Source: Mycobacteriales bacterium (GTDB taxonomy: Bacteria > Actinomycetota > Actinomycetes > JAFAQI01). From it: a stretch of 64,000 nucleotides of DNA. The stretch spans positions 97,156-161,155 of the forward strand of contig DASZUS010000045.1 in assembly GCA_035547515.1 (NCBI GenBank), written 5' to 3'. A program made the translations under genes and the position numbers. Below the pieces are notes generated by a model. That model ran no database searches. It was given only the letters and a program-made list of their open reading frames with translations, and was not told where the DNA came from. Position 1 is the first letter of the stretch, and every line of letters begins with the position of its first letter. Positions 5,642 through 60,581 of this stretch are shown in pieces.

Positions 5642-5740
5642 GGCAAGACGGTAGTGCCTGCTTCCCTTTGGGTCTTGTCCTGACGCACGGGTTGGGGGAG
5701 GCTAGGCCAACGGTCAGGCGAACGCTTCCAGGAGGCACAC

Positions 5741-5968
5741 ATGTCGATGCCCCAGTCCGAGGACACTCACCAGTCGCTGCTGGCGAGAATTCCCGAGTCG
5801 ACGGGGCGCGACCTGTCTAGCTGGTTCGGCTGTCTGGACGACGGCCCCGCCCTGCTCAGGTTCGACGAACGAGTCACCTGGCTTCGCGACGAGCATGGCC
5901 TTCCCCATGGCTACGCCCGGGCGATCGTGCACGAGCACGACAAACGGCGCGCAGCGACCCGCGCGTAG
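5741..5968 (+). CDS. Small DUF4287-like protein
   Basis: 75 aa with an AGGAGG RBS 6 nt upstream. The pattern LLARIPESTGR...W...HGLPHGYARAIV resembles the DUF4287 family (from memory). Confidence 0.5.
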   Translation: MSMPQSEDTHQSLLARIPESTGRDLSSWFGCLDDGPALLRFDERVTWLRDEHGLPHGYARAIVHEHDKRRAATRA

Positions 5969-5971
5969 TCG

Positions 5972-6382
5972 ATGGACGTTGGGGCCGCGCTCGAGTTCAT
6001 CCGCACCAACCACCACGCTGTCCTCGCCACGCTCCGCAGCGACGGCGCCCCGCAGCTCACCCCGGTCACCGCATCCGTCGATGCCGACGGCAAGGTCGTC
6101 GTGTCGAGCCGAGAGCCGGCGGCAAAGGTCCGCAACCTACGGCGCGACCCGCGTGCCTGGCTGACCGTCTTCACCGACCGCTTCTTCGGCGAGTTCGTCC
6201 AAGTCGAGGGCGACGCCACAATCGTGTCGCTGCCGGAGGCCATGGAAGGCCTCGTGGACTACTACAGGTCCGTCTCCGGCGACCACCCGGACTGGGACGA
6301 CTACCGAGCCGCGATGACTCGGGAGCAGCGGGTGCTGATCCGGGTCGATGTGACGCGGGCAGGCCCGACGTACTCCGGTTAG
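5972..6382 (+). CDS. PPOX-class (pyridoxamine 5'-phosphate oxidase-like) probable F420-dependent enzyme
   Basis: 136 aa. N-terminus HAVLATLRSDGAPQLTPV and the overall length are typical of actinobacterial PPOX-class F420 proteins. Confidence 0.7.
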   Translation: MDVGAALEFIRTNHHAVLATLRSDGAPQLTPVTASVDADGKVVVSSREPAAKVRNLRRDPRAWLTVFTDRFFGEFVQVEGDATIVSLPEAMEGLVDYYRSVSGDHPDWDDYRAAMTREQRVLIRVDVTRAGPTYSG

Positions 6383-6855
6383 GCGTAGACGAGCCGGGTG
6401 ATCCACTCGGCGACAAGCGCCGGCTTGGACTCGCCCTCGATCTCGACAGTCATGGTGCGGATCGTGTGCAGGGTGTTCGGGTCCTTGAGTTCGACACCCG
6501 ACAGAACGCTGGTGCAGCGGATCCGCGAGTTGACCTTGACCGCCTGGATGAACCGGATCTTCTCGAACCCATAGTTGACGCCCATGACGAGGCCGTCGAA
6601 GCGCTCCATCGGCTGCTTGATCGTCTCGCTCAACTTGACCAGCAACGACAGCGTCAGGAAACCGTGAGCGATGGTCACGCCCCACGGCGACATCGCCGCC
6701 GCCTTCTCCGGATCGACGTGAATGAACTGGTGGTCCTCGGTGACGTCGGCGAACGCGTTGATTCGCTCCTGGGTGACCTCGAGCCAGTCGCTGGTGCCTT
6801 CGGTCTCACCAACTGCAGCCTTCAGCTTCTCGTACGCCGCCTCAGCCTTCGTCAT
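6379..6855 (-). CDS. MaoC-like (R)-specific enoyl-CoA hydratase / hot-dog dehydratase
   Basis: 158 aa. Motif DHQFIHVDPEKAA...GVTIAHGFLTLSL is characteristic of MaoC dehydratase domains. Confidence 0.85.
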   Translation of the reverse strand: MTKAEAAYEKLKAAVGETEGTSDWLEVTQERINAFADVTEDHQFIHVDPEKAAAMSPWGVTIAHGFLTLSLLVKLSETIKQPMERFDGLVMGVNYGFEKIRFIQAVKVNSRIRCTSVLSGVELKDPNTLHTIRTMTVEIEGESKPALVAEWITRLVYA

Positions 6856-6889
6856 CCATGCCTCGTCTCATAGGTGTCGCCCGGACCGG

Positions 6890-6964
6890 TGCCCCCGGTC
6901 GGACTCGAACCGACAACGACCAGATTTTAAGTCCGGCGCCTCTGACCTGTTGGGCTACGGGGGC
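6890..6964 (-). tRNA. tRNA with hand-folded anticodon UAA (formally Leu/TTA-decoding) but a class-I short variable loop
   Basis: Minus-strand cloverleaf: acceptor GCCCCCG/CGGGGGC, T-arm GTCGG-TTCGAGT-CCGAC, anticodon arm CCGGA-CTTAAAA-TCTGG, 5-nt variable loop TCGTT, discriminator A followed by CC. Confidence 0.7.
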
Positions 6965-6974
6965 ACCGATGACG

Positions 6975-8294
6975 CTACTTCGATGCGCCCCGCGCCGCTT
7001 CGCGCTGGAAGTCGCTCCGCGGGTCCGCGAACGTGCCGAGCGAGACGATCTCGCGCCGGAAGAACAACGCGAGAGTCCAGTCGGCGACGACCCGAAGCTT
7101 GCGGTTCATCGTTGGCACACGGGCCAGGTGATAGGTCCGATGCATCCACCACGCAGGCAGCCCGCGCAGCTTGACCCCGTAGACCTCCGCCACGCCTCTG
7201 TGCAGGCCAAGGCTCGCGACCGACCCGGCGTAGGCGTGCCGGTAGGGACGAGGCTGCTTGCCTCGCAGGACCGCGACGATGTTGTCACCAAGCTGCTTCG
7301 CCTGCCGGACGGCGTGCTGTGCCGTCGGCCCGCACAGTGCGTCCGGCGAGTCCTTGGTCACGTCCGGCACGGCGGCGCAGTCTCCCGCCGCCCACGCATC
7401 GGGAGTGTCGACGATGCGCAGATCCGCGTGACACTTCACCCGCTTCATCTCGTCGAGCGGCAGATCGGTCTGCTCCAGCAATGGGTTCGGCCTTACCCCC
7501 GCCGTCCAGACGATCGTGTCCGCGTCGAACTCCGCGCCGTCGGACAGAACGACGTGGCCCTGTTCGAGGGACTCGACCCTCGTGTTGAGGCGCACCTTGA
7601 TGCCCTGCTTCTCGAGTTGGCGGACGGTGTACTCCGCCATGTCCAGGCTGACCTCGGGCAGGATGCGCCCGGTCGCCTCCACCATCGTCCAGTGCATGTC
7701 CGAAGCGGCCAGTCCCGGGTAGAACTTCAGCGCGTCGTGTGCCATGTCCTGGAGCTCGGCGATGGCCTCGATGCCGGCGTAGCCGCCTCCCACGAACACG
7801 AAGTTCAGCGCGCGGCTGCGCACGGCCGGGTCGTCCGTCGTCACCGCCAGGTCCAGCCGGGAAAGCACGCGGTTGCGCAGGTAGATCGCCTCCGCTGCGG
7901 TGCGGAACGCGATGCCGGTGTCGGCAAGTCCGGGGATCGGAAGGGTCTTGGCGACCGAGCCCAATGCGACAACGAGGATGTCGTAGCCGAGGTCCTGGTC
8001 CCCGCCCTCCTCGGGTCGCAGGCAGATGCGCCGGGCGGTGTGGTCGATGCTGGTCACCGTGCCGACGAGAACCTCGCACCGGTCGAGCACCCGCCGCAGC
8101 GGCACGACCATGTGCCGAGGCTCAAGGTTCCCTGCAGCAGCTTCCGGAAGGAACGGCTGGTAGGTCATGTACGAGCGGGTGTCGATGACCGTCACCCTGG
8201 CTTCGTCGCGGCGCAGCTTCTGCTGTAGCCGCAGCGCGGTGTACATCCCGACGTAGCCGCCACCGACGATCACGATTCGAGGTTGCGTGGACAC
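6975..8294 (-). CDS. ndh: Type II NADH dehydrogenase (NDH-2)
   Basis: 439 aa. Two Rossmann motifs (IVIVGGGYVG and FVFVGGGYAGIE) and a C-terminal membrane-anchoring region. Confidence 0.9.
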   Translation of the reverse strand: MSTQPRIVIVGGGYVGMYTALRLQQKLRRDEARVTVIDTRSYMTYQPFLPEAAAGNLEPRHMVVPLRRVLDRCEVLVGTVTSIDHTARRICLRPEEGGDQDLGYDILVVALGSVAKTLPIPGLADTGIAFRTAAEAIYLRNRVLSRLDLAVTTDDPAVRSRALNFVFVGGGYAGIEAIAELQDMAHDALKFYPGLAASDMHWTMVEATGRILPEVSLDMAEYTVRQLEKQGIKVRLNTRVESLEQGHVVLSDGAEFDADTIVWTAGVRPNPLLEQTDLPLDEMKRVKCHADLRIVDTPDAWAAGDCAAVPDVTKDSPDALCGPTAQHAVRQAKQLGDNIVAVLRGKQPRPYRHAYAGSVASLGLHRGVAEVYGVKLRGLPAWWMHRTYHLARVPTMNRKLRVVADWTLALFFRREIVSLGTFADPRSDFQREAARGASK

Positions 8295-34002: not shown

Positions 34003-35463
34003 TCAGGCGTCCTGTCGCGCGTCGGCAAGCGGGATCGGCGAGACCTCCATCGCCACGATCGGCGGCAGCGCCACGCTGACCTCCGTGCCGCCTGAGGGCC
34101 GGTTGTGAATCTGCACGGTCCCGCCGTGTCCGTCCACGACCTGCTTGACGATCGAGAGCCCGAGCCCCGAACCTGGCAGCGCGCGGGCCTCGTCGGCTCG
34201 GTAGAAGCGGTCGAAGACGAACCGGATCGACTCCTCCGGGATGCCCGGCCCCCGGTCGGCAACGGTGAGCACGCCGTTGGAGTCAAGGTCGACGTCGACG
34301 ATGCCCCCGGACAGACTGAACTTCCCCGCGTTGTCGAGGACGTTCGCGACCGCGCGGTCGAGTCTCTGCGGTACGCCGCGGACCGCCACGGGGCGGAGGT
34401 CCGCGCGGAAGTCGACGTTCGGCCAGTGGCGGCGGGCGCGGTCGACCGCGTGGGCCACCAGCTCGTCGAAGGCCACCTCCTCCTGCGCCGACTCCGGCGC
34501 CTCGCCGCGTGCCAGCTCGACCACGTCGGCGACCAGGCCGGTCAGCTCATCGAGCTGCGTCACGATGCCGTTGAGCAGCGAGCGCCGCTGGTCGACGGGG
34601 AGTCGCTCGACGTCATGGAGCACCTCGACGTTGGTGCGCAGGCTGGCCAGCGGCGTCCGCAGCTCATGGCTGGCGTCGAGGATCAGCTGGCGCTGCTGGT
34701 CGAGGGAACGTTCGAGCGCATCGAGCATGCCGTTGAAGGTCGAGGCGAGACGCCCCAGCTCGTCGGCGCCGTAGTCCTCGATCCGCGTGGTGAGGTCGCG
34801 GGTCTCGGCGATCTGCTCGGCTGCCGCGGTGAGCCGCGCCACGGGCCGCATCGTTCGCCGTACGACGAAAGAGGCACCGGCGGTGGCCATGCCCAGACCG
34901 AGCAGGACGAGGAGCAGGAAGGCGAACCGCAACTTGTGCAGCTCGCTGTTCGCGGCGGTGAGCGGCAACGCAACCTGCAAGGCGAGATCGACCTGCTGGC
35001 CGGTCGCGGACGTGAACGCGCGCTGCCTGGTGAAAAGCCGCATTGGTACGCCGTCGACCATTTCGGTGCGCAGCCAGGTGCCGCCGTCGCGCGCGATCGT
35101 CAAGTCGCGCTGCGCAACCGGCAGCGTGAGGCCGCCGGCCTCCTTGATGGTGTCGCCGTTGACGTCGACGACCTGCACGTTGCCGGCGCTCTTGTCCGGG
35201 TCCGGGTTGACGACGGGCTGGTAGGTCCGCGGGTCGACCGAGATCGAGTGGGAGTTCCCGGCCTGGTCGCGGAGCTGGCCGTCGATGTTGCTGTAGAGCT
35301 CGTGTCGCACAGCGACGTAAGCCACCGCCACGACCGCGACGATCGCGAACGTCGCGGCGAACGCGGCCGCGCCGGTGAGCCGGCTGCGAATCGGGGCGTT
35401 CTGCCACCGCGCTTCGATGGCGCCGATGCCGCGACGCAGCCGGTCGATGACCGGGCCGGTCAC
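34003..35463 (-). CDS. Sensor histidine kinase (HAMP-HisKA-HATPase; MprB-like)
   Basis: 486 aa. H-box [18 protein letters not shown] and GSGLGLSIV. Confidence 0.87.
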
Positions 35464-36155
35464 CCATCACCACGAAGGACGTAGCCGACCCCGCGCACGG
35501 TGTGGATCAGCCGCGGCTCCCCGGCCGCCTCGGTCTTGCGGCGCAGGTAGCCGACGAATACCTCGAGGGAGTTGCTCGTGGGCTCGGACTCCCAGCCCCA
35601 CACCCGGTCCATGATCGTCTCCCGGGGCAGCGGCCGTCCCGCGTTGCGGAGCAGCAGCTCGAGCAGTGCGAACTCGGTGCGTGTGAGGTCGATGCTGCGA
35701 CCGCCGCGGCGGACGGTGTGCGCCGCCGGATCGAGCTCGAGATCCTCGTAGACGAGTACGGCGCTCTCGTCGCCTTCGCCGGCCGAGGTACGCCGCAGCA
35801 GCGCGCGAAGCCGCGCCCGCAGCTCCTCGAGCGCGAACGGCTTCGTCAGGTAGTCGTCGGCCCCCGCGTCGAGGCCAGCCACTCGGTCACCAACCTCGTC
35901 CCGCGCGGTGAGGACGAGAATCGGCAAGGGATCGTTCTTGCTACGCAAGGTCCGGCAGACGTCGAGCCCGCCGACGTAGGGCATCATCACGTCGAGCACC
36001 ATCACGTCAGGCCGGTTTGCGCCGACCGCCTCGAGCGCCTTCACCCCGTTGCTCGCCGTCGACACTCGGTAGTCGTCGAGCTCGAGCGCCCGCGTCAGTG
36101 CCTCGCGCAGCTGAGGGTCGTCGTCCACGACGAGCACCTGCGGGCCGGATGACAT
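35460..36155 (-). CDS. OmpR-family response regulator (MprA-like)
   Basis: 231 aa. Motifs [17 protein letters not shown] and C-terminal [11 protein letters not shown]. Overlaps the kinase start by 4 nt. Confidence 0.92.
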
Positions 36156-36167
36156 GGTCGGCTCAGG

Positions 36168-37454
36168 TCAGCTCGTCGTCGAGTCGGAGAGCGTCACGGT
36201 CGCCGTCTTGGTCGAGCCGCCGCGGACGAACGTCACGGTGATCCGGTCGCCGGGCTGGAAGGAGCGCACGTAGGCGATCACTGCGTCGGCACCTGCGGTC
36301 GGGTGCCCGTTGATCGCCGTGATCACGTCGCCCTCCTTGATGCCTGCCTTGTCGGCTGGTCCACCAGCGGTCACCGCGCGCACCAGCGCCTGGTCGGCGC
36401 CGTTCGCGGAGGTGGCGTCGGTCAACGTCACCCCGAGCAAAGGATGCGTCGCGTGGCCGTTCTGGATCAACTCGCTGGCGATCACCTTCGCCTGGTTGAT
36501 CGGGATCGCGAAGCCCACGCCGATGTTGCCGCTTTGGCCGCTGAGGTCGGTCGAGCCGAGCGAGGCGATCGCCGAGTTGATGCCGATGACCTGGCCCGCG
36601 CTGTCGACCAGGGCGCCCCCGGAGTTCCCGGGGTTGATGGCCGCGTCGGTCTGGATCGCGTCGATGACCGTCGGCTCCGTGGGCTGCGGAGCGCTCTGCC
36701 CGAAGCCGAAGCCGAACGGGTTCTCCTGCTGCTGCTGGCTGTCGTCCTCGGTTTGCACCGGACGGTTCAGCGCAGACACGATGCCCTCGGTGACAGTGCC
36801 TTGCAGGCCCAGTGGCGAGCCGACGGCCAGCACCGGGTCGCCGACCTGGATCGCGGAACTGTCACCCAGCGTCGCCGGGGTCAGACCAGACTTCGACACC
36901 TTGATCACGGCCAGGTCGTCGAGGGGATCGGTGCCGACGATCTTCGCTGAGACGCTCGACCCGTCGTTGAAGCTCACCGAAATCTGGCCGCCTTGGCTCG
37001 CGGCCGCCACCACGTGGTTGTTGGTGAGGATGTAGCCGTCCGACCGCAGGACCACCCCCGAGCCGGTGTCGGACTCGCTCTGCGACGTCACGTTGATGTT
37101 GACCACGGAAGGCAGAACCTTGGCCGCGATCGCGGCATAGGACTTCGGGCTCGTGGTCAGCGCGGCGGAGCTCGCCGTACCGACAGTGAGGCCCGACGCA
37201 GCCACGCTGACGCCCGAGTTGTTGTTGAGGAGCTCGGCGCCCACGGCGACGCCGCCGCCCCCGAACACGAAGGCGGTGGCGGCCACGACTGCCGCCGTCC
37301 ACCTGCGGGAGCGTGCGACCGGGTCGACTGGTGCAGTCTGCGACGAAGCCGCGGGGTACGGAGCTGTCGGGTACGGCGTGGTCGGGGCGGTCGATGCCGG
37401 CTCCGGCTCAGGCGCCGCGAAAGGAGACCAGAACAGCTCGTCGTCGTCGCTCAT
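36168..37454 (-). CDS. HtrA/PepD-like trypsin-family serine protease with PDZ domain
   Basis: 428 aa. Motifs TNNHVV (His) and GNSGGALV (Ser), a C-terminal PDZ, an N-terminal TM anchor, and a GGAGGAG RBS. Confidence 0.9.
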   Translation of the reverse strand: MSDDDELFWSPFAAPEPEPASTAPTTPYPTAPYPAASSQTAPVDPVARSRRWTAAVVAATAFVFGGGGVAVGAELLNNNSGVSVAASGLTVGTASSAALTTSPKSYAAIAAKVLPSVVNINVTSQSESDTGSGVVLRSDGYILTNNHVVAAASQGGQISVSFNDGSSVSAKIVGTDPLDDLAVIKVSKSGLTPATLGDSSAIQVGDPVLAVGSPLGLQGTVTEGIVSALNRPVQTEDDSQQQQENPFGFGFGQSAPQPTEPTVIDAIQTDAAINPGNSGGALVDSAGQVIGINSAIASLGSTDLSGQSGNIGVGFAIPINQAKVIASELIQNGHATHPLLGVTLTDATSANGADQALVRAVTAGGPADKAGIKEGDVITAINGHPTAGADAVIAYVRSFQPGDRITVTFVRGGSTKTATVTLSDSTTS

Positions 37455-51149: not shown

Positions 51150-54100
51150 ATGGCTCGCTCGGCTCGTCCTGTCTTGCGCGCCTTCCGCGCGTCCGCGGTC
51201 GCGTTGTCGGTGTCGCTACTCACCTACGGGCTGGTCGCGCTGCCTGCGCAGCCTGCGAGCGCTGCGTCTTCGGCGACGGACGTGTCGTCGCGTCCCGACG
51301 CGGTCTCGGCCGCGCTGTCCGCTCGCCTCGAGGGTCATCGGGTGGCGATCACCGATGACGAGACCGACTCATCGACGACCTACGCGAACCCGGACGGCAC
51401 GTTCACGACGGAGACGAGCCAGGGCCCGGTGCGGGTGGCGCAGCCTGGTGGCGGTTTCGCCCCGCTGAACCTGACGCTCACCCAGAACGCGAACGGCTCC
51501 TACTCGCCGACTACCGCGGCGGCGCCGTTCACCCTCGACAACGGCGGCTCGACGACCGCGGCGACGCTGCCGGAGGCATCTGGCCGCTCGGTTGGCGTGG
51601 GCTGGACCTCGAAGCTGCCTGCCCCGACGGTGTCGGGTGGTACCGCGAGCTATGCGATCTCGAGCACCGAGAAGCTCGTCGTCGCCGCGACGTCGGAGGG
51701 CTTCACCGCGGACGTGGTGCTGACCGCGCCGCCGACGTCGTCGAGCTTCACGGTGACGTTGCCGTTGAGCCTGGCGAAGCTGACCGCGACCCAGGCCGCT
51801 AACGGCACGGTGAGCTTGCAGGACGCTGCCGGTGACACGGTCGCCAGTGCGCATCAGTTCGCGATGTGGGACGCCAGCGCCGGCACGACGCCGTTTCCGG
51901 ACCAGGAGACGGCGGTGCCGACCAAGCTCTCCACCTCCGCGAGCGGCGCACCCGAACTGGTGCTGTCCCCGTCGATGAGCTTCCTGGACAGTCCCTCGAC
52001 GCAGTACCCGGTGACGATCGACCCGAGCATCGGATCCCTCGCCCGCACCGGAAGCACGTTCTGGTACACCAACAACACCAGCCCGCAGGCGGGGAACTAC
52101 GAGCTGATCGTCGGCCCGAACACCAGCGGCTCGGTCGCGTACCGGTCGTTCGTGAACTTCAACGCGAACCCGATCATGGCCTCCCACGTCACCAACGCCA
52201 ACCTGAGCCTCTACCAGATCTACGCCGCGTCCTGCTCGGCGCAGTCGATGACCGCCTACGCCTCCTCGGCGGTCGCGAACTCCAGCACCGTGTGGTCCAA
52301 CGCTCCGGGCAAGAACACCAGCTACAGCGACGCGGTGTCTTCCAACACGGCCGGCCCGAGTTGTAGCCCGGCGCAGCCGTATGGGTCGGAGTCGATCCCG
52401 GTCACCAACATCCTCAACGCCTGGAGCAACGGCACGATCGCCGCCAAGGGCATCCAGCTGTGGGCAACCAGTGAGACGAACACCGCCGCAGGCAAGATCT
52501 TCTGCTCAGAGGTCGTCACCGCCGGCACCACCTGCAACAACTCCGCCTATGAGCCGACCCTGTCAGTGACCTATGACGACTACCCGCAGGTCGCTACCCA
52601 CCTTTCGGCCGAGCCGAGCTCGATCGGGTCCACCGGCAAGACGTACACGACGTCTCTGACTCCCACGCTGCAGGCACTCTCCACGGACCCCGACGGCAGC
52701 AGCAACTATGTTGAGTTCCAGGTCCTTCACGACCCGAGCTACCCGAGCGAAGGCACCGGCAGCGTCTGGACTGGCTACTCACCACTCACCCCGCAAGGCG
52801 CCTCTGCATCGATCAATGTGCCATCCGGACAGCTCGTCAACGGTTACCACTACGAGTGGGAAGCCATCGGCTACGTCCAGAACAGCCTCGGCGGCTACGA
52901 CTTCGCCCCCACCTGGTCGACCATGCAGTACCTCGCCGTCGATAGCAACATCCCCCCGACACCCACTGTCAGCTGCACCGCGTTCCCGTTCGGCTCGTGG
53001 ACCAACGCAAGCCCCGCTGGTGCGACCTGCACCGCGTCGGACTCAGCGGTGGATCTGTCCGGCTTCTATTACTCCTTTGACAACCCCGACCCCGAAACGC
53101 CGGTCACTCAGAGTTCCGGGTCCGCCACCATCACGATGCCCTCCGGCGGCAACACGCTCAGCAACGGAATGCACACGCTGTATGTGCAGGCCTACAACAT
53201 CGCCTACAGCCGATCCGCCACGATCACCCAGTACAGTTTCGGGATCGGCGTCGGCGGTTTGAGTTCGCCAAGCAACGGCCAGACCACCCAGCAGGCCGTC
53301 GTGCTCACCACGACCGCTGCGCCCGCCGAGACCGGCGTCACGTTCAGCTACCGCCAAGGCACTACTGGCACCTGGATCACCGTTCCTACCAGCGACGTGA
53401 CGATCCCTGGCACCAGCACCAACCCCACCTGGCCGCAGGCTATAAGCGGTGGGACCTCCACCCCGCTTGACTGGGATGTAGCCCAAACCATTGCCAACGC
53501 AGGCGGCTCCGACGGACCTCTTCAACTAGAAGCATGCTTCAACCACAGTGGCACGCAGGACGGGTGTTCGGGAAGTACCAATCTCAGCCTGGCGCAGACT
53601 GCGTTTGGCGACAGCCAAGCGACTACCAATGTCGGCCCCGGTTCCTTGTCACTCCTCACGGGGGATCTCGACGTACCGGCGACCGACGTCAACGTCAGCA
53701 GCGTCGGTGGTGGACTTTCCCTCGGACGAGACCTCACCACCTTGGCGCCGTCGACCAGCGACACGGGAGCCGACGGAATCTTTGGGCCCGCATGGAGCGC
53801 CGATCTACCTTCGCCGACAGACGGCTACGCGACTGATTCCCTATTCATGGCTCACGATCTCGGGTACGCGACGTTGACAGGTCCCGACGGCACCGTGTTC
53901 GACTACATCACCCCGAGCACGGGCTACCCGTACGTCTTTACCGGCGAGAGCTCAGCTGACGACGGATCTATCCTTACGCAGCCCTCGATTGACGCTGCCA
54001 ACATCACCGAGTCGGACGGGAGCGTTACGAGTTGGACGCGTAGCGCTGTCGGCTCGCCCTGGGAACTTGCGTCGGTGGTGGTAGCAGGGTCCAACAGCAC

Positions 54101-57100
54101 GACTAGCTACACATACAACGGAGCAGGTCAAGTCGTTCAGGTCGTCGCTCCTACCGCGGCGGGCGTGACCTGCACCAGTCCACTCACTACCCGCGGCTGC
54201 CGCACCCTGACGCTGGCGTATGCCACCTCCACCACGGCCAGCGGTACCAGTCCGTCGCAATGGGGCGACTATTACGACTCAGCGAACGGTGTGGGTCGGT
54301 TGAAGACGGTGCAGTTGACCGCCTACGACCCGTCGTCATCGACCATGACTACGGTCGCGGTGGCTGACTACTCATACGACAGCAACGGAATGCTTCGCGG
54401 CGAGTGGGATCCGCGAATCAGCCCGGTTCTTGAAACGACCTACAGCTATGGAGCCGGCGATCGACTTGCTACCGTCACCCCGCCCGGTCTCACCGGAGAC
54501 ACGATCAACTACGACAGCGAGGGTCGGGTAGCGAGTATCCAGCGGGTTGATCCAGTTAATGGCACAGCCACCCAAGCGATCGCCTACACCGTGCCGATTA
54601 CCGGTAGTGGCGCGCCGATTGACATGTCGGCGAGCGCGACAGATTCGTGGGGCCAGACCACCGACCTGCCGTTTACGGCTACCGAGGTTTTCCCACCCGA
54701 CCACGTGCCAGCGACAGGTAGCAACGGCGACTACGCGCCTTCCGCGACTGACTATCCGTACGGTTCAATCAGCTATCTCGATGTCAACGGCTATAGCGTC
54801 GACGCGGCCGCGTTTGGCGCCGACGCATGGCAGGTGAGCGCGACTCAATACAACGGCAACGGCGGCGTCATCTGGCAACTGAGCGCCGACAACCGCGATC
54901 AGGCACTTAGCCCGACCGCCCAGACGGATCCCCTGGTCGCGGCCATGCCGAACTCGGCAGAACGAGCAGACGCTCTCGCCAGTACAAGCCAATACGCGTC
55001 GGACGGATACGACCTAAGCGACACGTACGGGCCAACCCGGCCGACAGTCCTCGACAACGGTGCGTTGGCGGGAGCCGTCGTGGATGCAAGAGACCACATT
55101 CACTACGTGTATAACCAGGGAGCTCCGGGCGGTGGCTATGACCTCGTCACTGAGACGAGTGAGTCTCCGTCATTCGCACAGTCCGGCTCCTCGGTGATGG
55201 CCGACTACGCCCCCGATACCAGGAGCACCATCGCTGGCTACAACCCGGTGGACGGCTCCGGCGACTCGGGGCCGACCAGCGGCTGGACGCTTAGTGAGCC
55301 GACGTCTACTACGACCGTGATGCCCGGTTCGGGCAACAACATCACTACCGAGACCGAATACGACGCGGATGGCAACGTCATCGAGTCGATCATGCCGAAG
55401 GCGACGAGCGCAGGCGTCGACGCATACACGACCGACACCGGGTACTACACAGCCGGCGCGAACGCGCAGTATCCAGCTTGCGCAAATCGCCCCGAGTGGG
55501 CCGGCTTACTGTGCGAGACCGGACCGGCCGTCCAACCGACAAGCGGACCCCCTGTCCCCACAACAACGACGACGTACAACATCTATGACGAACCACTCGT
55601 CGTAACTGCTACATCGGGTACGGGCGGCGCGATGGCAACCAGGACCACAACCTTCACATACGACGCGGCGGGACGAACCCTGACCACAGGAATCACCGAC
55701 TCATCCAGTGACGCGACGAATGTTCCGACGACTACGACGTCTTATGACCCCGGAACCGGGCTTGCCACGACGATGTCGACCTCGGCGGGCACGATCAGTA
55801 CGGGGTATAACTCGCTTGGCGAGGCGACCAGCTACACGGCACCGACAGGCACCGGGACGAACACCACCACGACGACGTACAACATCGACGGCAACGTCTC
55901 TTCGATCAACGACGGCAAGGGCACGACCACGTTCACCTACAACGGCACCGACAGCCTCGGGCGTGCAGAACATCGCGGACTGGTTACATCAGAGTCGACA
56001 GGAGTCGCGAGCGGCGACACGTTCTCCGGCTCGTACGACGCCGACGGGAACCTTACGAACGAGACCTATCCGAACGGCCTCGTAGCCACTACCGGCTATA
56101 ACAACACCGACGAACCGACGAACTTGACCTACGCGATGGGTAGCTCGACATGGGCAACCTTCGCCGATGCCTACAACGAATTCGGTCAGGTTGTTGATCA
56201 ATCGAGTCCAGAGTCATCCCAACAGATTCAATACGACCAGGACGGCCGCATCAGCCAGGTAGCCGACAACGGCGACGGCACGTGCGTGACCCGCACCTAC
56301 TCATACGACGCCGACTCCAATCGGATCGGGTACACGGTGTACCCCGCCACAAACACAAACCAGTGCTCAACGACAACCACACCGACCGCGAACGAGACGT
56401 CTACTCACGACCAAGCAGATCGGATCACCAACGCCGGCTACACGTACGACAACATGGGCCGGACCACGACGATCCCGGCCGTCGACACTTACGACACCAA
56501 CCCGAGCCCAACGAACTTGACCCTGACGTATTTCGCTGACGACACCGTCCACACGGAGAGTCAGGACGGGGTCACCGACACCTTCACGCTCGACCCGGGC
56601 GGACGCGTTCTCAGTGAGACCAATAGTGGCACTTCCGCCACGGTCACCGACGTCTACAGCGACAGCAGCGACTCACCGGCATGGACGTCTAGTAGCGGCG
56701 GCGGATGGAGTCGGTTCATTCCTGATTTGGCAGGCAACCTGAGCGAGATCGAGACCTCAACAGGCACCGCCAACGCAACGCTCCAACTTGTCAACCTCCA
56801 CGGCGACGTCGTTGCGACCGCTCCGGACTCGAGTGCCGACACCGGCTACAGCAACTACAGCGAGGACACGGAGTTTGGCGCGCCACGTGCGGCGAACGCC
56901 ACCTCGTCCACGACCTATGCGTGGCTTGGGGGTAAGGAGCGGTCGAGTAATACTTTGGGCGGCCTTGTCGTGATGGGAGCCCGGGCCTACTCCCCGACTA
57001 CTGGCAGGTTCCTCACTACCGACCCTATCCGTGGAGCCAGCGCAAATTCCTACGACTACTGCGACCAAGATCCGGTGAATGTCTTTGACATCTCCGGAAC

Positions 57101-57509
57101 AAGTCCAAGTCAGGCATCCGTCAGTGCGCCTACGCCCCTTTGGGTGAGCTTCAACGGCGTCATCGCCTGCAAGCCTCACGAGAACAGCGCCATCCTCGAG
57201 GGCACGGCAAAGATCAATCCCGCGAATTACGCTTGGTACTTCGGTGGGTGGAAGCCATTCCACGTTGTCGACCACGGTGACGTCGAGACCTGGACCACCG
57301 TCCAGAACTCCTATTCGCGTGAAGACATCTATTGCGGCTGTCGAGACGGAAAACCGAGCGAGTGGGGAGTCGGCTACGACCCCGTTCACAGGTTCCACAA
57401 GATCTACTACGACTGCTTCAATCTCTCGTGCGTCTGGTTCGGCGACGCCACGCTGCCCTGGGAAGAAGGGCCTATGGCATGGCACCCGGACTACGACGGA
57501 GATGCCTAG
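51150..57509 (+). CDS. Sec-signal RHS/YD-repeat polymorphic toxin (2119 aa)
   Basis: GGAGG RBS. Signal peptide ending PASA|AS (about residue 38). DNRLRE-like region (about residues 300-477). More than 20 YD repeats (YTYNGAGQV, YSYDSNGML, INYDSEGRV, TEYDADGNV, FTYDAAGRT, IQYDQDGRI, YTYDNMGRT...). RHS core end ARAYSPTTGRFLTTDPIRG...YDYCDQDPVNVFDISG. A 136-aa C-terminal extension follows. Confidence 0.92.
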   Translation: MARSARPVLRAFRASAVALSVSLLTYGLVALPAQPASAASSATDVSSRPDAVSAALSARLEGHRVAITDDETDSSTTYANPDGTFTTETSQGPVRVAQPGGGFAPLNLTLTQNANGSYSPTTAAAPFTLDNGGSTTAATLPEASGRSVGVGWTSKLPAPTVSGGTASYAISSTEKLVVAATSEGFTADVVLTAPPTSSSFTVTLPLSLAKLTATQAANGTVSLQDAAGDTVASAHQFAMWDASAGTTPFPDQETAVPTKLSTSASGAPELVLSPSMSFLDSPSTQYPVTIDPSIGSLARTGSTFWYTNNTSPQAGNYELIVGPNTSGSVAYRSFVNFNANPIMASHVTNANLSLYQIYAASCSAQSMTAYASSAVANSSTVWSNAPGKNTSYSDAVSSNTAGPSCSPAQPYGSESIPVTNILNAWSNGTIAAKGIQLWATSETNTAAGKIFCSEVVTAGTTCNNSAYEPTLSVTYDDYPQVATHLSAEPSSIGSTGKTYTTSLTPTLQALSTDPDGSSNYVEFQVLHDPSYPSEGTGSVWTGYSPLTPQGASASINVPSGQLVNGYHYEWEAIGYVQNSLGGYDFAPTWSTMQYLAVDSNIPPTPTVSCTAFPFGSWTNASPAGATCTASDSAVDLSGFYYSFDNPDPETPVTQSSGSATITMPSGGNTLSNGMHTLYVQAYNIAYSRSATITQYSFGIGVGGLSSPSNGQTTQQAVVLTTTAAPAETGVTFSYRQGTTGTWITVPTSDVTIPGTSTNPTWPQAISGGTSTPLDWDVAQTIANAGGSDGPLQLEACFNHSGTQDGCSGSTNLSLAQTAFGDSQATTNVGPGSLSLLTGDLDVPATDVNVSSVGGGLSLGRDLTTLAPSTSDTGADGIFGPAWSADLPSPTDGYATDSLFMAHDLGYATLTGPDGTVFDYITPSTGYPYVFTGESSADDGSILTQPSIDAANITESDGSVTSWTRSAVGSPWELASVVVAGSNSTTSYTYNGAGQVVQVVAPTAAGVTCTSPLTTRGCRTLTLAYATSTTASGTSPSQWGDYYDSANGVGRLKTVQLTAYDPSSSTMTTVAVADYSYDSNGMLRGEWDPRISPVLETTYSYGAGDRLATVTPPGLTGDTINYDSEGRVASIQRVDPVNGTATQAIAYTVPITGSGAPIDMSASATDSWGQTTDLPFTATEVFPPDHVPATGSNGDYAPSATDYPYGSISYLDVNGYSVDAAAFGADAWQVSATQYNGNGGVIWQLSADNRDQALSPTAQTDPLVAAMPNSAERADALASTSQYASDGYDLSDTYGPTRPTVLDNGALAGAVVDARDHIHYVYNQGAPGGGYDLVTETSESPSFAQSGSSVMADYAPDTRSTIAGYNPVDGSGDSGPTSGWTLSEPTSTTTVMPGSGNNITTETEYDADGNVIESIMPKATSAGVDAYTTDTGYYTAGANAQYPACANRPEWAGLLCETGPAVQPTSGPPVPTTTTTYNIYDEPLVVTATSGTGGAMATRTTTFTYDAAGRTLTTGITDSSSDATNVPTTTTSYDPGTGLATTMSTSAGTISTGYNSLGEATSYTAPTGTGTNTTTTTYNIDGNVSSINDGKGTTTFTYNGTDSLGRAEHRGLVTSESTGVASGDTFSGSYDADGNLTNETYPNGLVATTGYNNTDEPTNLTYAMGSSTWATFADAYNEFGQVVDQSSPESSQQIQYDQDGRISQVADNGDGTCVTRTYSYDADSNRIGYTVYPATNTNQCSTTTTPTANETSTHDQADRITNAGYTYDNMGRTTTIPAVDTYDTNPSPTNLTLTYFADDTVHTESQDGVTDTFTLDPGGRVLSETNSGTSATVTDVYSDSSDSPAWTSSSGGGWSRFIPDLAGNLSEIETSTGTANATLQLVNLHGDVVATAPDSSADTGYSNYSEDTEFGAPRAANATSSTTYAWLGGKERSSNTLGGLVVMGARAYSPTTGRFLTTDPIRGASANSYDYCDQDPVNVFDISGTSPSQASVSAPTPLWVSFNGVIACKPHENSAILEGTAKINPANYAWYFGGWKPFHVVDHGDVETWTTVQNSYSREDIYCGCRDGKPSEWGVGYDPVHRFHKIYYDCFNLSCVWFGDATLPWEEGPMAWHPDYDGDA
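57099..57509 (+). other. C-terminal variable (toxin) domain of the RHS protein, residues 1984-2119, family unassigned
   Basis: Begins right after the DPxN..D.SG core boundary. Has 5 Cys (IACKPH, YCGCRDG, YYDCFNLSC) and is rich in Trp/Tyr/His. No motif I can match to nuclease, deaminase, ART or peptidase toxin families. Confidence 0.6.
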
Positions 57510-57703
57510 CCATGGCACACACCTCAGGACACCGAATACTTGACAGTAAGGAGGCGACGCAGGGCAATGCCGGCACCGAACGTGACGAGGCCTTGGCAGT
57601 CACCGCTTCCAGCGGCGCGCTTCCCAGGAGCGCGGCGACAACCTACTCGATGCGGGGTAGCTCAGAACCTGACCCTAAGGCCAGATTCAGATTGGAGGAC
57701 ATC

Positions 57704-57877
57704 ATGAAGGTCTGGAAAGACCAATGGGTTCCCGGCGACCCGTTGCCAGCACGCGGGCTGCTCCGGGCAGCGGAGAATCTCGACGGTAGAGGAAACCGCG
57801 GTAAAGCCATCGCATGGGTCGCGCTAATCTCGATCCTTGGCGGCATCGCCTTCGTGGCTGTTCAGATCACGCGATGA
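57704..57877 (+). CDS. Small single-pass membrane protein (immunity-module candidate)
   Basis: 57 aa (MKVWKDQWVPGDP...AIAWVALISILGGIAFVAVQITR), with GGAGG 5 nt upstream. An in-frame longer version could start at the ATG at 57512, 2 nt after the RHS stop. Confidence 0.45.
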   Translation: MKVWKDQWVPGDPLPARGLLRAAENLDGRGNRGKAIAWVALISILGGIAFVAVQITR

Positions 57878-58266
57878 GACCGTCAGTCTCTCACGATCTT
57901 CCGAGCCGTGGTGCGGCCTTGGCCGCGCTCTGTCTGTTCGTGGTGCTGATCAGCGCCTGCGGGAGTGGTACACCCTCTACGTCAAGCCAGTTGCGACCGA
58001 TGGCTACGAGCTCGGCCCGGGGCCAAACGCCCGCCGATATCGCCTGCGATGACTTCGCTCGTTTTGTTGATAGCCATTCTGCTGCGGATTTGGCCGCAGC
58101 AGTCAGCACATCTCGCAGCATCCGAGGCGCGGGTCGCGCCGCTACAAATGTGAGCGCCGACATCGCTACCTACGTAGAACAGAAGCGGGCGCACGCCAAG
58201 GAGTTTCTTGCAGCGACGACGGCCGCAATTGAGCACGACTGCGCGAGCCTTCCACACAGGGTTTGA
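57874..58266 (+). CDS. Small lipoprotein (immunity candidate)
   Basis: 130 aa. Its ATG overlaps the upstream TGA (ATGA). Lipobox LFVVLISAC. The mature part of about 100 aa is helical-looking and has two further Cys. Confidence 0.6.
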   Translation: MRPSVSHDLPSRGAALAALCLFVVLISACGSGTPSTSSQLRPMATSSARGQTPADIACDDFARFVDSHSAADLAAAVSTSRSIRGAGRAATNVSADIATYVEQKRAHAKEFLAATTAAIEHDCASLPHRV

Positions 58267-58365
58267 GTGGCCACCCTACTAAGGAGGGTCGGGGTCGGGA
58301 GGGACTGCCCCGTGAAGCGCCCCAGGTTTGATGCCGCCTCCTTGTGAGTCCAGGAGGATGGTGTC

Positions 58366-58520
58366 GTGCCGAAGAAGATTGATCCGAAGGTAACGCAGCG
58401 TTGCGTTCAGCAGATCCTCGAGCACGTGCAGGAGCACCGAACCCGACCGCGGCGGCGGAGGTCAGCGCGGGGCTCTGGCAGGCGTGCGCAGACAGAGCCA
58501 GGCTCGGCACCGGTCGCGAC
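58366..58520 (+). mobile_element. Degenerate remnant of an IS3-family transposase orfA (N-terminal HTH region only, frameshifted)
   Basis: A GTG start with an AGGAGG RBS gives MPKKIDPKVTQRCVQQILEHVQEH. The next frame continues PNPTAAAEVSAGL...LGTGRD. This parallels the MPKKIDPEV..AVRLV.EH..EYPSLTAA..AVA.QLGVGRES pattern of IS3 OrfA proteins (from memory). No orfB or inverted repeats found. Confidence 0.35.
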
Positions 58521-58545
58521 CGGCATGAACCACGCCTCGCGGCGC

Positions 58546-59001
58546 TCAGGCCGGGCTTGGTGCCGGCCGAGCTTCCTGGATCTGCTCGAGCATGGCGCGG
58601 ACCTTCGATGGTCTGTACGACCCTGTAGGCATCGCCCGCACCACCTCTCCCGAGTTCAAGATGAGCGCCACGCACGTCGCGCGGCCGGTGACGTTGCCGC
58701 TGTCCACGATGGTCAGATCGCGGACGCTCTCCCAACTGAAGACCTTCGTCGATCCGATATTTCGAATGGTGACCGTCCTCGGGCCGACCTCGACGCCAAG
58801 TCGGAGGGAACGGAGCGCTGCGGCGGCAAACGCGACAGCCACAAGTCCATCCCCGACTTGGTCGCCGTACGTCGGATCGGAATGAGCCCCGCGAACGGCG
58901 GCGCCCAGCGCGAACGCCGCGGCGAGCAGGCCAGTAGCGGAAAACACGCCATAGGTCTGCGCGCGGTTAGTGATCAGCACGTCGCCCGGACCGAGCCGCA
59001 C
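58546..59001 (-). CDS. Membrane protein with bacterial PH-like domain (paralogue 1)
   Basis: 151 aa. Two N-terminal TM helices, then VGPRTVTIRNIGSTKVFSWESVRDLTIV...VALILNSGEVVRA. Same architecture as the neighbouring gene. Confidence 0.55.
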   Translation of the reverse strand: MRLGPGDVLITNRAQTYGVFSATGLLAAAFALGAAVRGAHSDPTYGDQVGDGLVAVAFAAAALRSLRLGVEVGPRTVTIRNIGSTKVFSWESVRDLTIVDSGNVTGRATCVALILNSGEVVRAMPTGSYRPSKVRAMLEQIQEARPAPSPA

Positions 59002-59028
59002 CCTGCGAAGGTGAGCTGCGAGTGGCGT

Positions 59029-59499
59029 TCACACCGCCTCCATCCGACGCGAGCTGATCAGTTCGTTGAGCGCAGCGATGAGCTCGTTGTCCTGCGCCAT
59101 GCGCTTGGCGCCCGCGAATGAGGCGGTCGCGAGACCTTCGAGACGGATCTTCTCGCCCGAGGCGAGGAGCAAGGTGCCCGCCCGTCCACGAGATAGGGTG
59201 ATGCTTTCCACTTCAGACCACCTGAAGGTCCTCACATCGAAGTAGTTTCGCACTTTCATCCCGGCGTCCGAGACGAAGACGCCGGACCGCGCGCCCGCAG
59301 CGAAGATCACCGCAACAGGAACGACCGTGGCTGCGATGACAATGCGGACGCCTACTGGGTACTGCGCATCGCTGATCGGCGCCGCCCCGATGAGAAGCGT
59401 GACTGCGGCAGCCGTCAGCCCACAGCGCCGGGCAAACCTCGTCTGGATGAGCTCACGATCCAACGTGGCACGCGAAGCGCGACGTCGGCGCGGCCTCAC
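59029..59499 (-). CDS. Membrane protein with bacterial PH-like domain (paralogue 2)
   Basis: Start set at the GTG at 59499. TM helices, then VSDAGMKVRNYFDVRTFRWSEVESITLS...LLLASGEKIRLEG. The upstream part of the 220-aa ORF looks non-coding. Confidence 0.55.
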   Translation of the reverse strand: MRPRRRRASRATLDRELIQTRFARRCGLTAAAVTLLIGAAPISDAQYPVGVRIVIAATVVPVAVIFAAGARSGVFVSDAGMKVRNYFDVRTFRWSEVESITLSRGRAGTLLLASGEKIRLEGLATASFAGAKRMAQDNELIAALNELISSRRMEAV

Positions 59500-59909
59500 G
59501 AGGCGACCCCGGTTCCTTTGAAAGCCCAGTCGCCACCAGCGCCAAGTCTGACCTGATGCTCGCGGTCGGACACAACCCGGCGCCGCGTCGCGGTCATCCC
59601 GGTCGGATGATGGGAGATCACCACCGCCCCCGGCGTCACGCTGCAAACAAGACTGAGATAACGACGCGCATGCGGACCTCCCCCAACCCATATCCCGGCG
59701 CCCCTACCGGCTGTCGGCACCGGCAGTTCAGGCTGGCGATCCTGGCACGGCCAAAGCCGCGCGTCAGGACACTCTGATAGGCCAGATGGATGTTGGGGTC
59801 GGGGCGGCCCTCGGAATAGGCCTGTCTGTCATGGTGGACATACTTGCCTTCTGACGCAGCGCGGGCACGTCCTCCTCGTCAACAGCTACAGACTTGGGAG
59901 GTGTCTTCC

Positions 59910-60581
<672 letters not shown>

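Follow-up and report, generated by a model that had tools for sequence, protein, structure and literature searches.

The question that this locus raises is whether a large RHS-repeat protein of a Mycobacteriales bacterium is an exported polymorphic toxin and, if it is, where its C-terminal cargo acts and which gene protects the producing cell. The locus lies in a 64,000-nucleotide stretch of DNA (assembly GCA_035547515.1, contig DASZUS010000045.1, positions 97,156 to 161,155; hereafter the window), in which a gene at 51150-57509 encodes a protein of 2119 amino acids (aa). The protein ends in a 136-aa extension (the tip), and its gene is followed by those of a small membrane protein and a lipoprotein. 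The original prediction, made before any database search, described a Sec-exported toxin of the WapA type with a new tip, a target in the envelope and immunity proteins located there as well. We found in the protein those hallmarks of an RHS polymorphic toxin that a sequence can reveal, namely the repeats, the core and a tip that varies and starts where the core ends. In our view, held with some reserve, the protein is probably an RHS toxin of the WapA type from a Mycobacteriales-like soil actinobacterium, its tip acting outside the cytoplasm and being neutralised by the lipoprotein.

An RHS protein with a predicted Sec signal and a recognisable core

The open reading frame (ORF) is intact over 6.4 kb. 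Its ATG lies 6 nt downstream of a GGAGGA Shine-Dalgarno sequence, after an intergenic gap of 186 nt, and both the ORF listing and the translation bore out the predicted length. The N-terminus, MARSARPVLRAFRASAVALSVSLLTYGLVALPAQPASA↓AS (the arrow marks a predicted cleavage site here and below), has the positively charged n-region, the hydrophobic h-region and the AxA c-region of a cleavable Sec-type signal peptide, as had been proposed, and an equivalent is present in both of the orthologues described below (L005 and L004). A Tat signal was considered and dropped, the N-terminus having no twin-arginine (RR) motif.

Hidden Markov model (HMM) scans of the whole protein yielded only RHS_repeat (Pfam), TIGR03696 and YD_repeat_2x. 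The predicted DNRLRE domain was overlooked by full-length hmmscan, evidently lost in the HMMER filters, and was recovered above its curated cutoff when the N-terminal 441 aa were scanned alone (NF033679, E = 8.3e-12, 45.5 bits versus a cutoff of 34); long, compositionally biased repeat proteins need to be scanned piecewise. DNRLRE domains are ~ 30% identical to the alginate-binding module CBM96 (PMC9971899). The Ig-like segments that had been proposed could not be confirmed, as no HMM matched aa ~ 475-900 in whole or fragment scans. LysM, CWB and DUF6531 had no HMM match in the protein.

RHS_repeat matched the whole protein with an E-value of 6.6e-13, with further matches in three sub-fragments between aa ~ 980 and ~ 1900. 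Where more than 20 YD repeats had been announced, the strict pattern Y[DN]xx[GN] counts 13 in the repeat region, with degenerate copies besides, and one more, the 14th, in the tip. Against PDB, phmmer of the whole protein gave no match, and its C-terminal 537 aa gave a weak match to entry 8h8a, a solved Rhs protein. TIGR03696 (Rhs_assc_core) recognised aa 1909-1983 with an E-value of 3.8e-13 (49.8 bits versus a cutoff of 32.5). The core ends in ...GRFLTTDP...YDYCDQDPVNVFDISG and is followed by the 136-aa extension, both as originally quoted; the boundary motif is DISG and not the canonical DPxG.

Pfam and NCBIfam scans of the protein did not detect PAAR, LXG or WXG domains. Genes of type VI or type VII secretion systems (T6SS, T7SS) were likewise absent, as predicted, from the flanking genes scanned (~ 17 kb upstream and 6 kb downstream), which have housekeeping functions (two-component systems, an HtrA-like protease, a phosphoesterase, MIP, MoeA and DUF2231). 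The signal peptide, the absence of a T6SS/T7SS adaptor and the putative surface-binding module in the N-terminal region support the assignment to the Sec-dependent WapA type, with Sec as the presumed export route. Cysteines along the whole protein fall in close pairs, as expected of an oxidised protein that folds outside the cytoplasm.

The tips diverge after residue 1983, and the genes behind them differ

A scan of 185,579 species-representative genomes returned two orthologues, L005 (77% identity) and L004 (59% identity), both from soil metagenome-assembled genomes labelled Mycobacteriales. Both align to the window protein exactly to residue 1983, and the tips beyond this point cannot be aligned. 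The three C-termini are near-invariant through GRFLxxDP...SANSYDYCDQDP[VI]NxxD[IL]xG, with the pattern GRFLxxDP...YDYCDQDPxNxxD[IL]xG invariant in all three, and then lose all similarity.

The downstream genes differ as well. In L005 (L005:11940-12893), the tip is followed by an ATGA-overlapping gene for a 176-aa protein with two transmembrane (TM) helices. The L005 tip itself ends in a glycine-zipper-like hydrophobic stretch (GMGAGGMVGGPDGMVAGGVIGGIGGCIAGAV), and a membrane-disrupting tip paired with a membrane immunity protein is the likely interpretation. In L004, a 135-aa lipoprotein (LGGC) begins 10 nt after the tip; it is unrelated to the window lipoprotein except in the signal peptide. 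This L004 lipoprotein (L004:12284-12691) is 37% identical to a paralogue fragment ~ 750 nt downstream (L004:13036-13308), and the pair looks like an immunity array of the orphan or poly-immunity kind that occurs at other loci for polymorphic toxins.

Two further loci came from a second scan of metagenomes, for which the conserved core served as the seed. The more distant relative L006 has another tip, followed by two proteins with two TM helices each. L008 is an orphan core-plus-tip fragment with a distinct tip, followed by a soluble ORF. The L008 fragment (L008:3989-4564) starts inside the core (…LMGARLYNPATGRFLQVDP…YDYCDQDPIN…), its own tip has a C-terminal TM segment, and it adjoins a large gene at 5720-7858 (712 aa); it looks like a displaced tip cassette.

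Membrane or lipoprotein genes thus directly follow the tip in four of the five related loci, the window included, and wherever the tip differs in the loci compared (L005, L004 and L006), the downstream genes differ too. Because the orthologues share the protein up to residue 1983 and then continue into unrelated tips and different envelope genes, tip and downstream genes appear to behave as a swappable polymorphic-toxin cassette.

The tip has a single full-length relative, a secreted protein

Of the 136 residues of the tip, 8 are Trp, 8 are Tyr and 5 are Cys. It had no match in Pfam or NCBIfam at E ≤ 0.1, and a word-index search of 5.8 billion proteins gave none either, although this search also failed to return the tip's own protein. 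An exhaustive phmmer search of 1.84 billion representative proteins gave seven matches: a small protein, P0007, and six large surface proteins (P0001-P0006). With a profile of the tip and P0007, we did not detect a match in a PDB sequence search at E ≤ 10, nor, with an alignment of the two, in metagenome and viral scans; a PDB search with a profile of the surface-protein repeats gave noise only. The tip is in this sense new, as had been supposed, in that none of the Pfam, NCBIfam, PDB, word-index and profile searches connected it to a characterised toxin family.

P0007 is a stand-alone protein of 145 aa with its own Sec signal peptide and is the sole full-length relative of the tip. The alignment of its mature part with the tip begins at the released N-terminus (TPLW), covers ~ 106 residues with 31% identity (pairwise E = 2e-12) and keeps four cysteines in register. 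Used as a query, P0007 returned only itself. Its gene lies on a 902-bp metagenomic contig (L001) with a visibly lower G+C content, ~ 50% by eye. The start of the tip, TSPSQASV (57099-57125), aligns with the signal-peptidase site of P0007, TVPAQA↓SV (residues 21-28); the likeness may be due to chance, to a common mature N-terminus or to secondary processing.

The six surface proteins carry a tandem unit of ~ 75 aa (…VVFQTVN…YYxGGW[KR]xFG…NYSFRMxY…DKKQDIGxDP…) that aligns over tip residues 11-102, and one of the six scores as Pfam CarboxypepD_reg. Their E-values, down to 1e-15, are sums over up to 11 near-identical repeats, and a single repeat against the tip gives a pairwise BLASTP E-value of 1e-5 that is not significant database-wide; hhalign assigned the comparison of tip and repeats a probability of 75%. 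The repeats, which are CarboxypepD_reg-like (PF13620), have the pattern P-x-V-[FW]...YYxGGW[KR]xF...NSYS/NYSF...D-P-x-V-x-F in common with the tip over ~ 85 residues. They lack, however, the four or five cysteines of the tip and its C-terminal extension of 35 aa. We treat this weak resemblance as a lead and not as a finding.

AlphaFold2 models of the tip with P0007 (predicted local distance difference test score, pLDDT, 35) and with P0007 and the repeat units (pLDDT 43) were too poor for Foldseek. These low-confidence models contain only beta structure, with a hairpin that would be closed by Cys2089-Cys2094. Three assignments for the tip were considered and rejected. The spacing of the residues and their conservation in P0007 did not fit an L,D-transpeptidase-like site (H...SxGC[IV]R) or a papain/NlpC-like Cys-His site, and there was no match to the YkuD or NlpC HMMs, respectively. 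A small disulfide protein of the neocarzinostatin, SSI or CBM2 type had no HMM support.

The tip might not be antibacterial at all. It could be a glycan- or surface-binding beta-sandwich module of the CarboxypepD_reg type, or an effector against fungi, amoebae or insects; no immunity would then be needed, and the downstream ORFs would be unrelated envelope proteins or non-genes. This alternative is kept alive mainly because P0007 stands alone without an immunity gene and because of the weak similarity to the repeats, and it would also accommodate the richness of the tip in Trp and Tyr and the low third-position G+C content (GC3) of the downstream ORFs, which lack homologues. The similarity, however, draws its E-values from summed repeats, and the position of the tip after the core, its replacement in the orthologues and its tight coupling to the genes downstream are hallmarks of a toxin-immunity cassette. 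The glycine-zipper-like L005 tip, moreover, would be membrane-active. We therefore regard a tip without antibacterial function as rather unlikely.

Two envelope-addressed genes follow the tip

The membrane protein and the lipoprotein predicted downstream, joined by an ATGA overlap, were both confirmed, with an alternative start for the first. From the ATG at 57704, which has GGAGGA 4 nt upstream, the membrane ORF encodes 57 aa up to the TGA at 57877. The same frame is also open from the ATG at 57512, 2 nt past the RHS stop, and from there encodes 121 aa; this start has only GGAG, 10 nt upstream. The 121-aa version is the one called in two Logan assemblies from this strain (SRR12170512 and SRR12170515), whose copies of the locus are 100% identical to that of the window. 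GC3, at 0.67 in both halves of the ORF, favours neither start. The single TM segment lies at the extreme C-terminus. Since it is preceded by RGNRGK and followed only by QITR, the protein is predicted to be oriented N-in with its soluble part in the cytoplasm, and the earlier statement that a cytosolic immunity protein is absent goes further than this topology allows.

The lipoprotein signal, ...ALCLFVVLISAC↓GSG, fits the lipobox [LVI][ASTVI][GAS]C as I-S-A-C (…VVLISAC↓GSG), and the mature part is helical with two cysteines. Neither downstream ORF matched any family in HMM scans, and among 5.8 billion clustered proteins the only relatives of the lipoprotein were identical copies of the window locus.

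These genes also bear on the possibility that the same RHS scaffold delivers its tip into the cytoplasm of the target cell, like the tRNase tips of Bacillus subtilis WapA. The 121-aa ORF, with an N-terminal part of ~ 95 aa in the cytoplasm, would then be the immunity protein and the lipoprotein an unrelated passenger. The frame is indeed open right after the RHS stop and was called in this way in the Logan assemblies, the charge distribution predicts the N-in orientation, and GC3 is equal in both halves. However, the internal ATG has the stronger Shine-Dalgarno sequence, and ATGA coupling would be unexpected for a passenger. Related loci likewise have lipoprotein or TM genes directly downstream, and the four conserved cysteines together with the Sec-secreted homologue P0007 argue for an oxidising, extracytoplasmic workplace. 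A cytoplasmic tip is in our view unlikely.

A model for the locus and the points against it

In the model that we favour, that of a WapA-type toxin acting outside the cytoplasm, the 2119-aa precursor would be exported unfolded via Sec and its 38-aa signal peptide removed. The N-terminal region, with its DNRLRE/CBM96-like glycan-binding module, would hold the protein on the wall of the producer or engage glycans of a neighbouring cell. The YD repeats would fold as a shell around the tip, and the aspartyl protease of the Rhs core would cut at ...FDISG↓T, leaving the tip loose inside. The tip, a small beta-rich domain presumably stabilised by two disulfides (with Cys2007-Cys2064 and Cys2089-Cys2094 as the expected pairs), would then be released onto the neighbouring cell and act outside its cytoplasm, on the outer face of the membrane or on the wall. 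Binding or sequestering of its target would be a more probable mode of action than any recognisable enzymatic one. Protection of the producer would come from the downstream genes, which are translationally coupled, with the lipoprotein as the likelier direct neutraliser and the tail-anchored membrane protein as a possible partner.

An extracytoplasmic site of action is favoured because P0007 is Sec-secreted, because its homology to the tip starts from the released N-terminus and because four cysteines are conserved. To this extent the predicted envelope location stands; the envelope target itself and the immunity roles of the two downstream proteins we infer.

Several points weigh against this model. 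There is no ORF next to the P0007 gene on its 902-bp contig, and no counterpart of the window's downstream ORFs; instead, a 13-bp GC-rich hairpin with U4 lies ~ 60 nt past the stop and resembles a terminator (z = -4.3). One would not expect a self-toxic domain to stand alone in this manner, without an immunity-like gene beside it. It also qualifies the predicted linkage between tip and downstream ORFs: these differ whenever the tip differs, but they are absent at P0007, which comes close to an outcome that the original prediction had itself named as speaking against it. The tip is not homologous to any toxin, its toxicity being a proposal, and neither structure prediction gave its fold. The soluble part of the membrane protein is predicted to lie in the cytoplasm. 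The coding signal of both downstream ORFs is weak (GC3 0.63-0.67), and their only homologues are the identical copies. Finally, a ~ 220-kDa Sec product would have to cross an outer mycomembrane, if the host has one, which is a difficulty for the model.

Table 1. Features of the RHS locus, with positions in the window
Feature	Position	Strand	Residues	Basis
rhs/wapA-like gene, 2119-aa precursor	51150..57509	+	1-2119	ORF listing, translation; orthologues with 77% and 59% identity over aa 1-1983
Sec-type signal peptide, predicted cleavage ASA↓AS	51150..51263	+	1-38	read from sequence
DNRLRE domain, CBM96-like carbohydrate-binding module	52071..52571	+	~308-474	NF033679
RHS/YD repeat shell	54087..56873	+	~980-1908	RHS_repeat (Pfam), YD_repeat_2x (NCBIfam), strict motifs, weak 8h8a match
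Rhs-associated core with aspartyl autoprotease motif GRFLTTDP...FDISG	56874..57098	+	1909-1983	TIGR03696
C-terminal tip (cargo), orphan, Cys- and Trp/Tyr-rich, predicted beta-rich	57099..57509	+	1984-2119	no family match
C-terminally anchored membrane protein, TM AIAWVALISILGGIAFVAV, predicted N-in	57512..57877 or 57704..57877	+	121 aa or 57 aa	sequence
Lipoprotein, lipobox ISAC, best immunity candidate	57874..58266	+	130 aa	sequence; ATGA-coupled to membrane ORF
IS3-family transposase OrfA-like N-terminal remnant (MPKKIDPKV...), cassette end	58366..58460	+		translation
tRNA-Ala(CGC), bounds the low-GC stretch holding the RHS cassette	60506..60581	-		ARAGORN

Genomic setting

The host genes that flank the locus have ~ 70% GC and a GC3 of 0.84-0.90. 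GC drops from ~ 0.70 to 0.60-0.65 over ~ 52000-60500, starting inside the RHS gene, where GC3 is ~ 0.9, as in the host genes, over aa 1-500 and drops to ~ 0.73 past aa 700; amelioration may have affected the 5′ part of the gene, or this part may have recombined separately from shell and tip. Past the lipoprotein gene lies a short remnant that we take to resemble IS3-family OrfA and that had no HMM match. The low GC up to ~ 60500, this remnant and the tRNA-Ala boundary together place the RHS cassette in a horizontally acquired stretch beside a tRNA gene. At the opposite border of the island, we looked for att-like direct repeats of the end of tRNA-Ala and found none, and a promoter and terminator scan of the locus was uninformative. 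The Logan contigs of the locus end ~ 75 nt past the lipoprotein gene.

In both orthologous loci (L005:777-5310 and L004:1358-4420), a gene for a TrwC-type relaxase lies beside the RHS gene, and L005 also has a tyrosine integrase and a tRNA-Leu(CAG) just upstream. This suggests that the RHS subfamily travels as cargo of integrative mobilisable or conjugative elements. Unlike L004 and L005, the window locus retains no integrase or relaxase. This lack, the low GC and the flanking IS3-like remnant and tRNA could suggest that the locus is decaying on a genomic island that has itself degraded, and has no function at present. We consider this highly improbable, given the intact 6.4-kb frame with its good Shine-Dalgarno sequence, the conserved signal peptide and core protease motif, and the identical copies from two independent sequencing runs.

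Directly past the cassette, two neighbouring genes at 58546-59001 and 59029-59691, both on the minus strand, encode membrane proteins that are paralogues of each other and have a bacterial PH domain; the domain call for both (bPH_6) is marginally over the Pfam cutoff. Further upstream, at 34003-37454 on the minus strand, a HAMP/HisKA sensor kinase gene lies two genes from that of an HtrA-like Trypsin_2-PDZ protease, with a 231-aa ORF (35460-36155) between them. This order is similar to that of mprB and pepD in mycobacteria, in keeping with a Mycobacteriales-like host.

Discussion

To judge from the sequences, the closest described system is Streptococcus suis WapA, which has the same order of parts. 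It shares with the window protein a Sec signal, a DNRLRE-containing N-terminal region, the Rhs cocoon and core and a variable C-terminal part (CT), and it is a proven antibacterial toxin that mediates bacterial competition (PMC12704120). Its CT3 and CT7 are toxic only when directed to the periplasm (PMC12704120). The N-terminal region of S. suis WapA binds the wall and its toxin has an adjacent immunity gene (PMC12704120), whereas the window locus offers candidates for both functions. Here the N-terminal region has the DNRLRE domain without a LysM, CWB or DUF6531 match, and SecF-like or sortase B genes are not adjacent. The host, too, is different, being an actinobacterium of high GC; the tip has no relationship to any of the S. 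suis CTs, and the candidates for immunity are a lipoprotein and a membrane protein with a tail anchor. This architecture has been described before, and the kind of system is known.

WapA and WapI of B. subtilis reportedly constitute a contact-dependent toxin system of the Rhs family, in which WapA is said to be Sec-exported and wall-associated, with YD repeats, a polymorphic C-terminal toxin and the immunity gene directly downstream. The B. subtilis tips are reportedly tRNases that act in the cytoplasm, and WapI is said to be cytosolic. The window tip, by contrast, looks extracytoplasmic, with putative disulfides and a secreted homologue, and the genes behind it carry envelope-targeting signals. 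T6SS Rhs effectors (RhsA, Tse5 and V. parahaemolyticus Rhs, PDB 8h8a) and the TcB/TcC cocoon of Tc toxins have a shell of YD repeats that encloses a variable C-terminal cargo, and an aspartyl autoprotease in the Rhs core, all of which are predicted from the sequence for the window protein. In contrast to the T6SS effectors, the window locus has no PAAR, prePAAR or VgrG adaptor and no T6SS genes among the flanking genes scanned, and the protein has a predicted cleavable Sec signal instead.

Where interbacterial effectors act in the periplasm and the immunity protein is a lipoprotein or periplasmic (T6SS Tle/Tli and similar, and Imm65), immunity sits where the toxin works, and a lipobox or TM segment marks an envelope-acting toxin (PMC3482391). 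These effectors are recognisable enzymes (lipases, amidases, JAB), whereas the tip belongs to no recognisable catalytic family. In the 2012 census, lipoprotein immunity was exceptional, with Imm65 as the only case, and actinobacteria were represented by many RHS-containing toxin families with trafficking of the Sec type, termed 'T2SS' (Zhang et al, 2012; PMC3482391).

What is particular to the window locus is a near-orphan tip whose only full-length relative is a free secreted protein, together with envelope-addressed immunity candidates, a theme that recurs in the related loci. A more speculative and doubtful extension is that the tip and P0007 form a new family of small, disulfide-locked, aromatic-rich beta-sandwich proteins distantly derived from the CarboxypepD_reg-type repeats of surface proteins. 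Used either fused to an RHS shell or secreted alone, such proteins would arrest or kill neighbouring actinobacteria from outside by non-catalytic binding of an envelope component (e.g., a wall precursor or a surface receptor), and would be neutralised by a dedicated lipoprotein. If this were true, RHS shells would have a non-enzymatic, externally acting class of cargo.

Sec-exported RHS toxins are well catalogued and little studied in actinobacteria, and our literature search found no experimental work on them in Mycobacteriales. The concept of the RHS polymorphic toxin itself is unchanged by the present locus. If an activity of the tip were demonstrated, it would establish another toxin family and perhaps reveal a target in the envelope that is new as well. 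The window locus and its relatives make up a small RHS subfamily that points to a repertoire of envelope-acting toxins, with matching immunity proteins, in soil actinobacteria.

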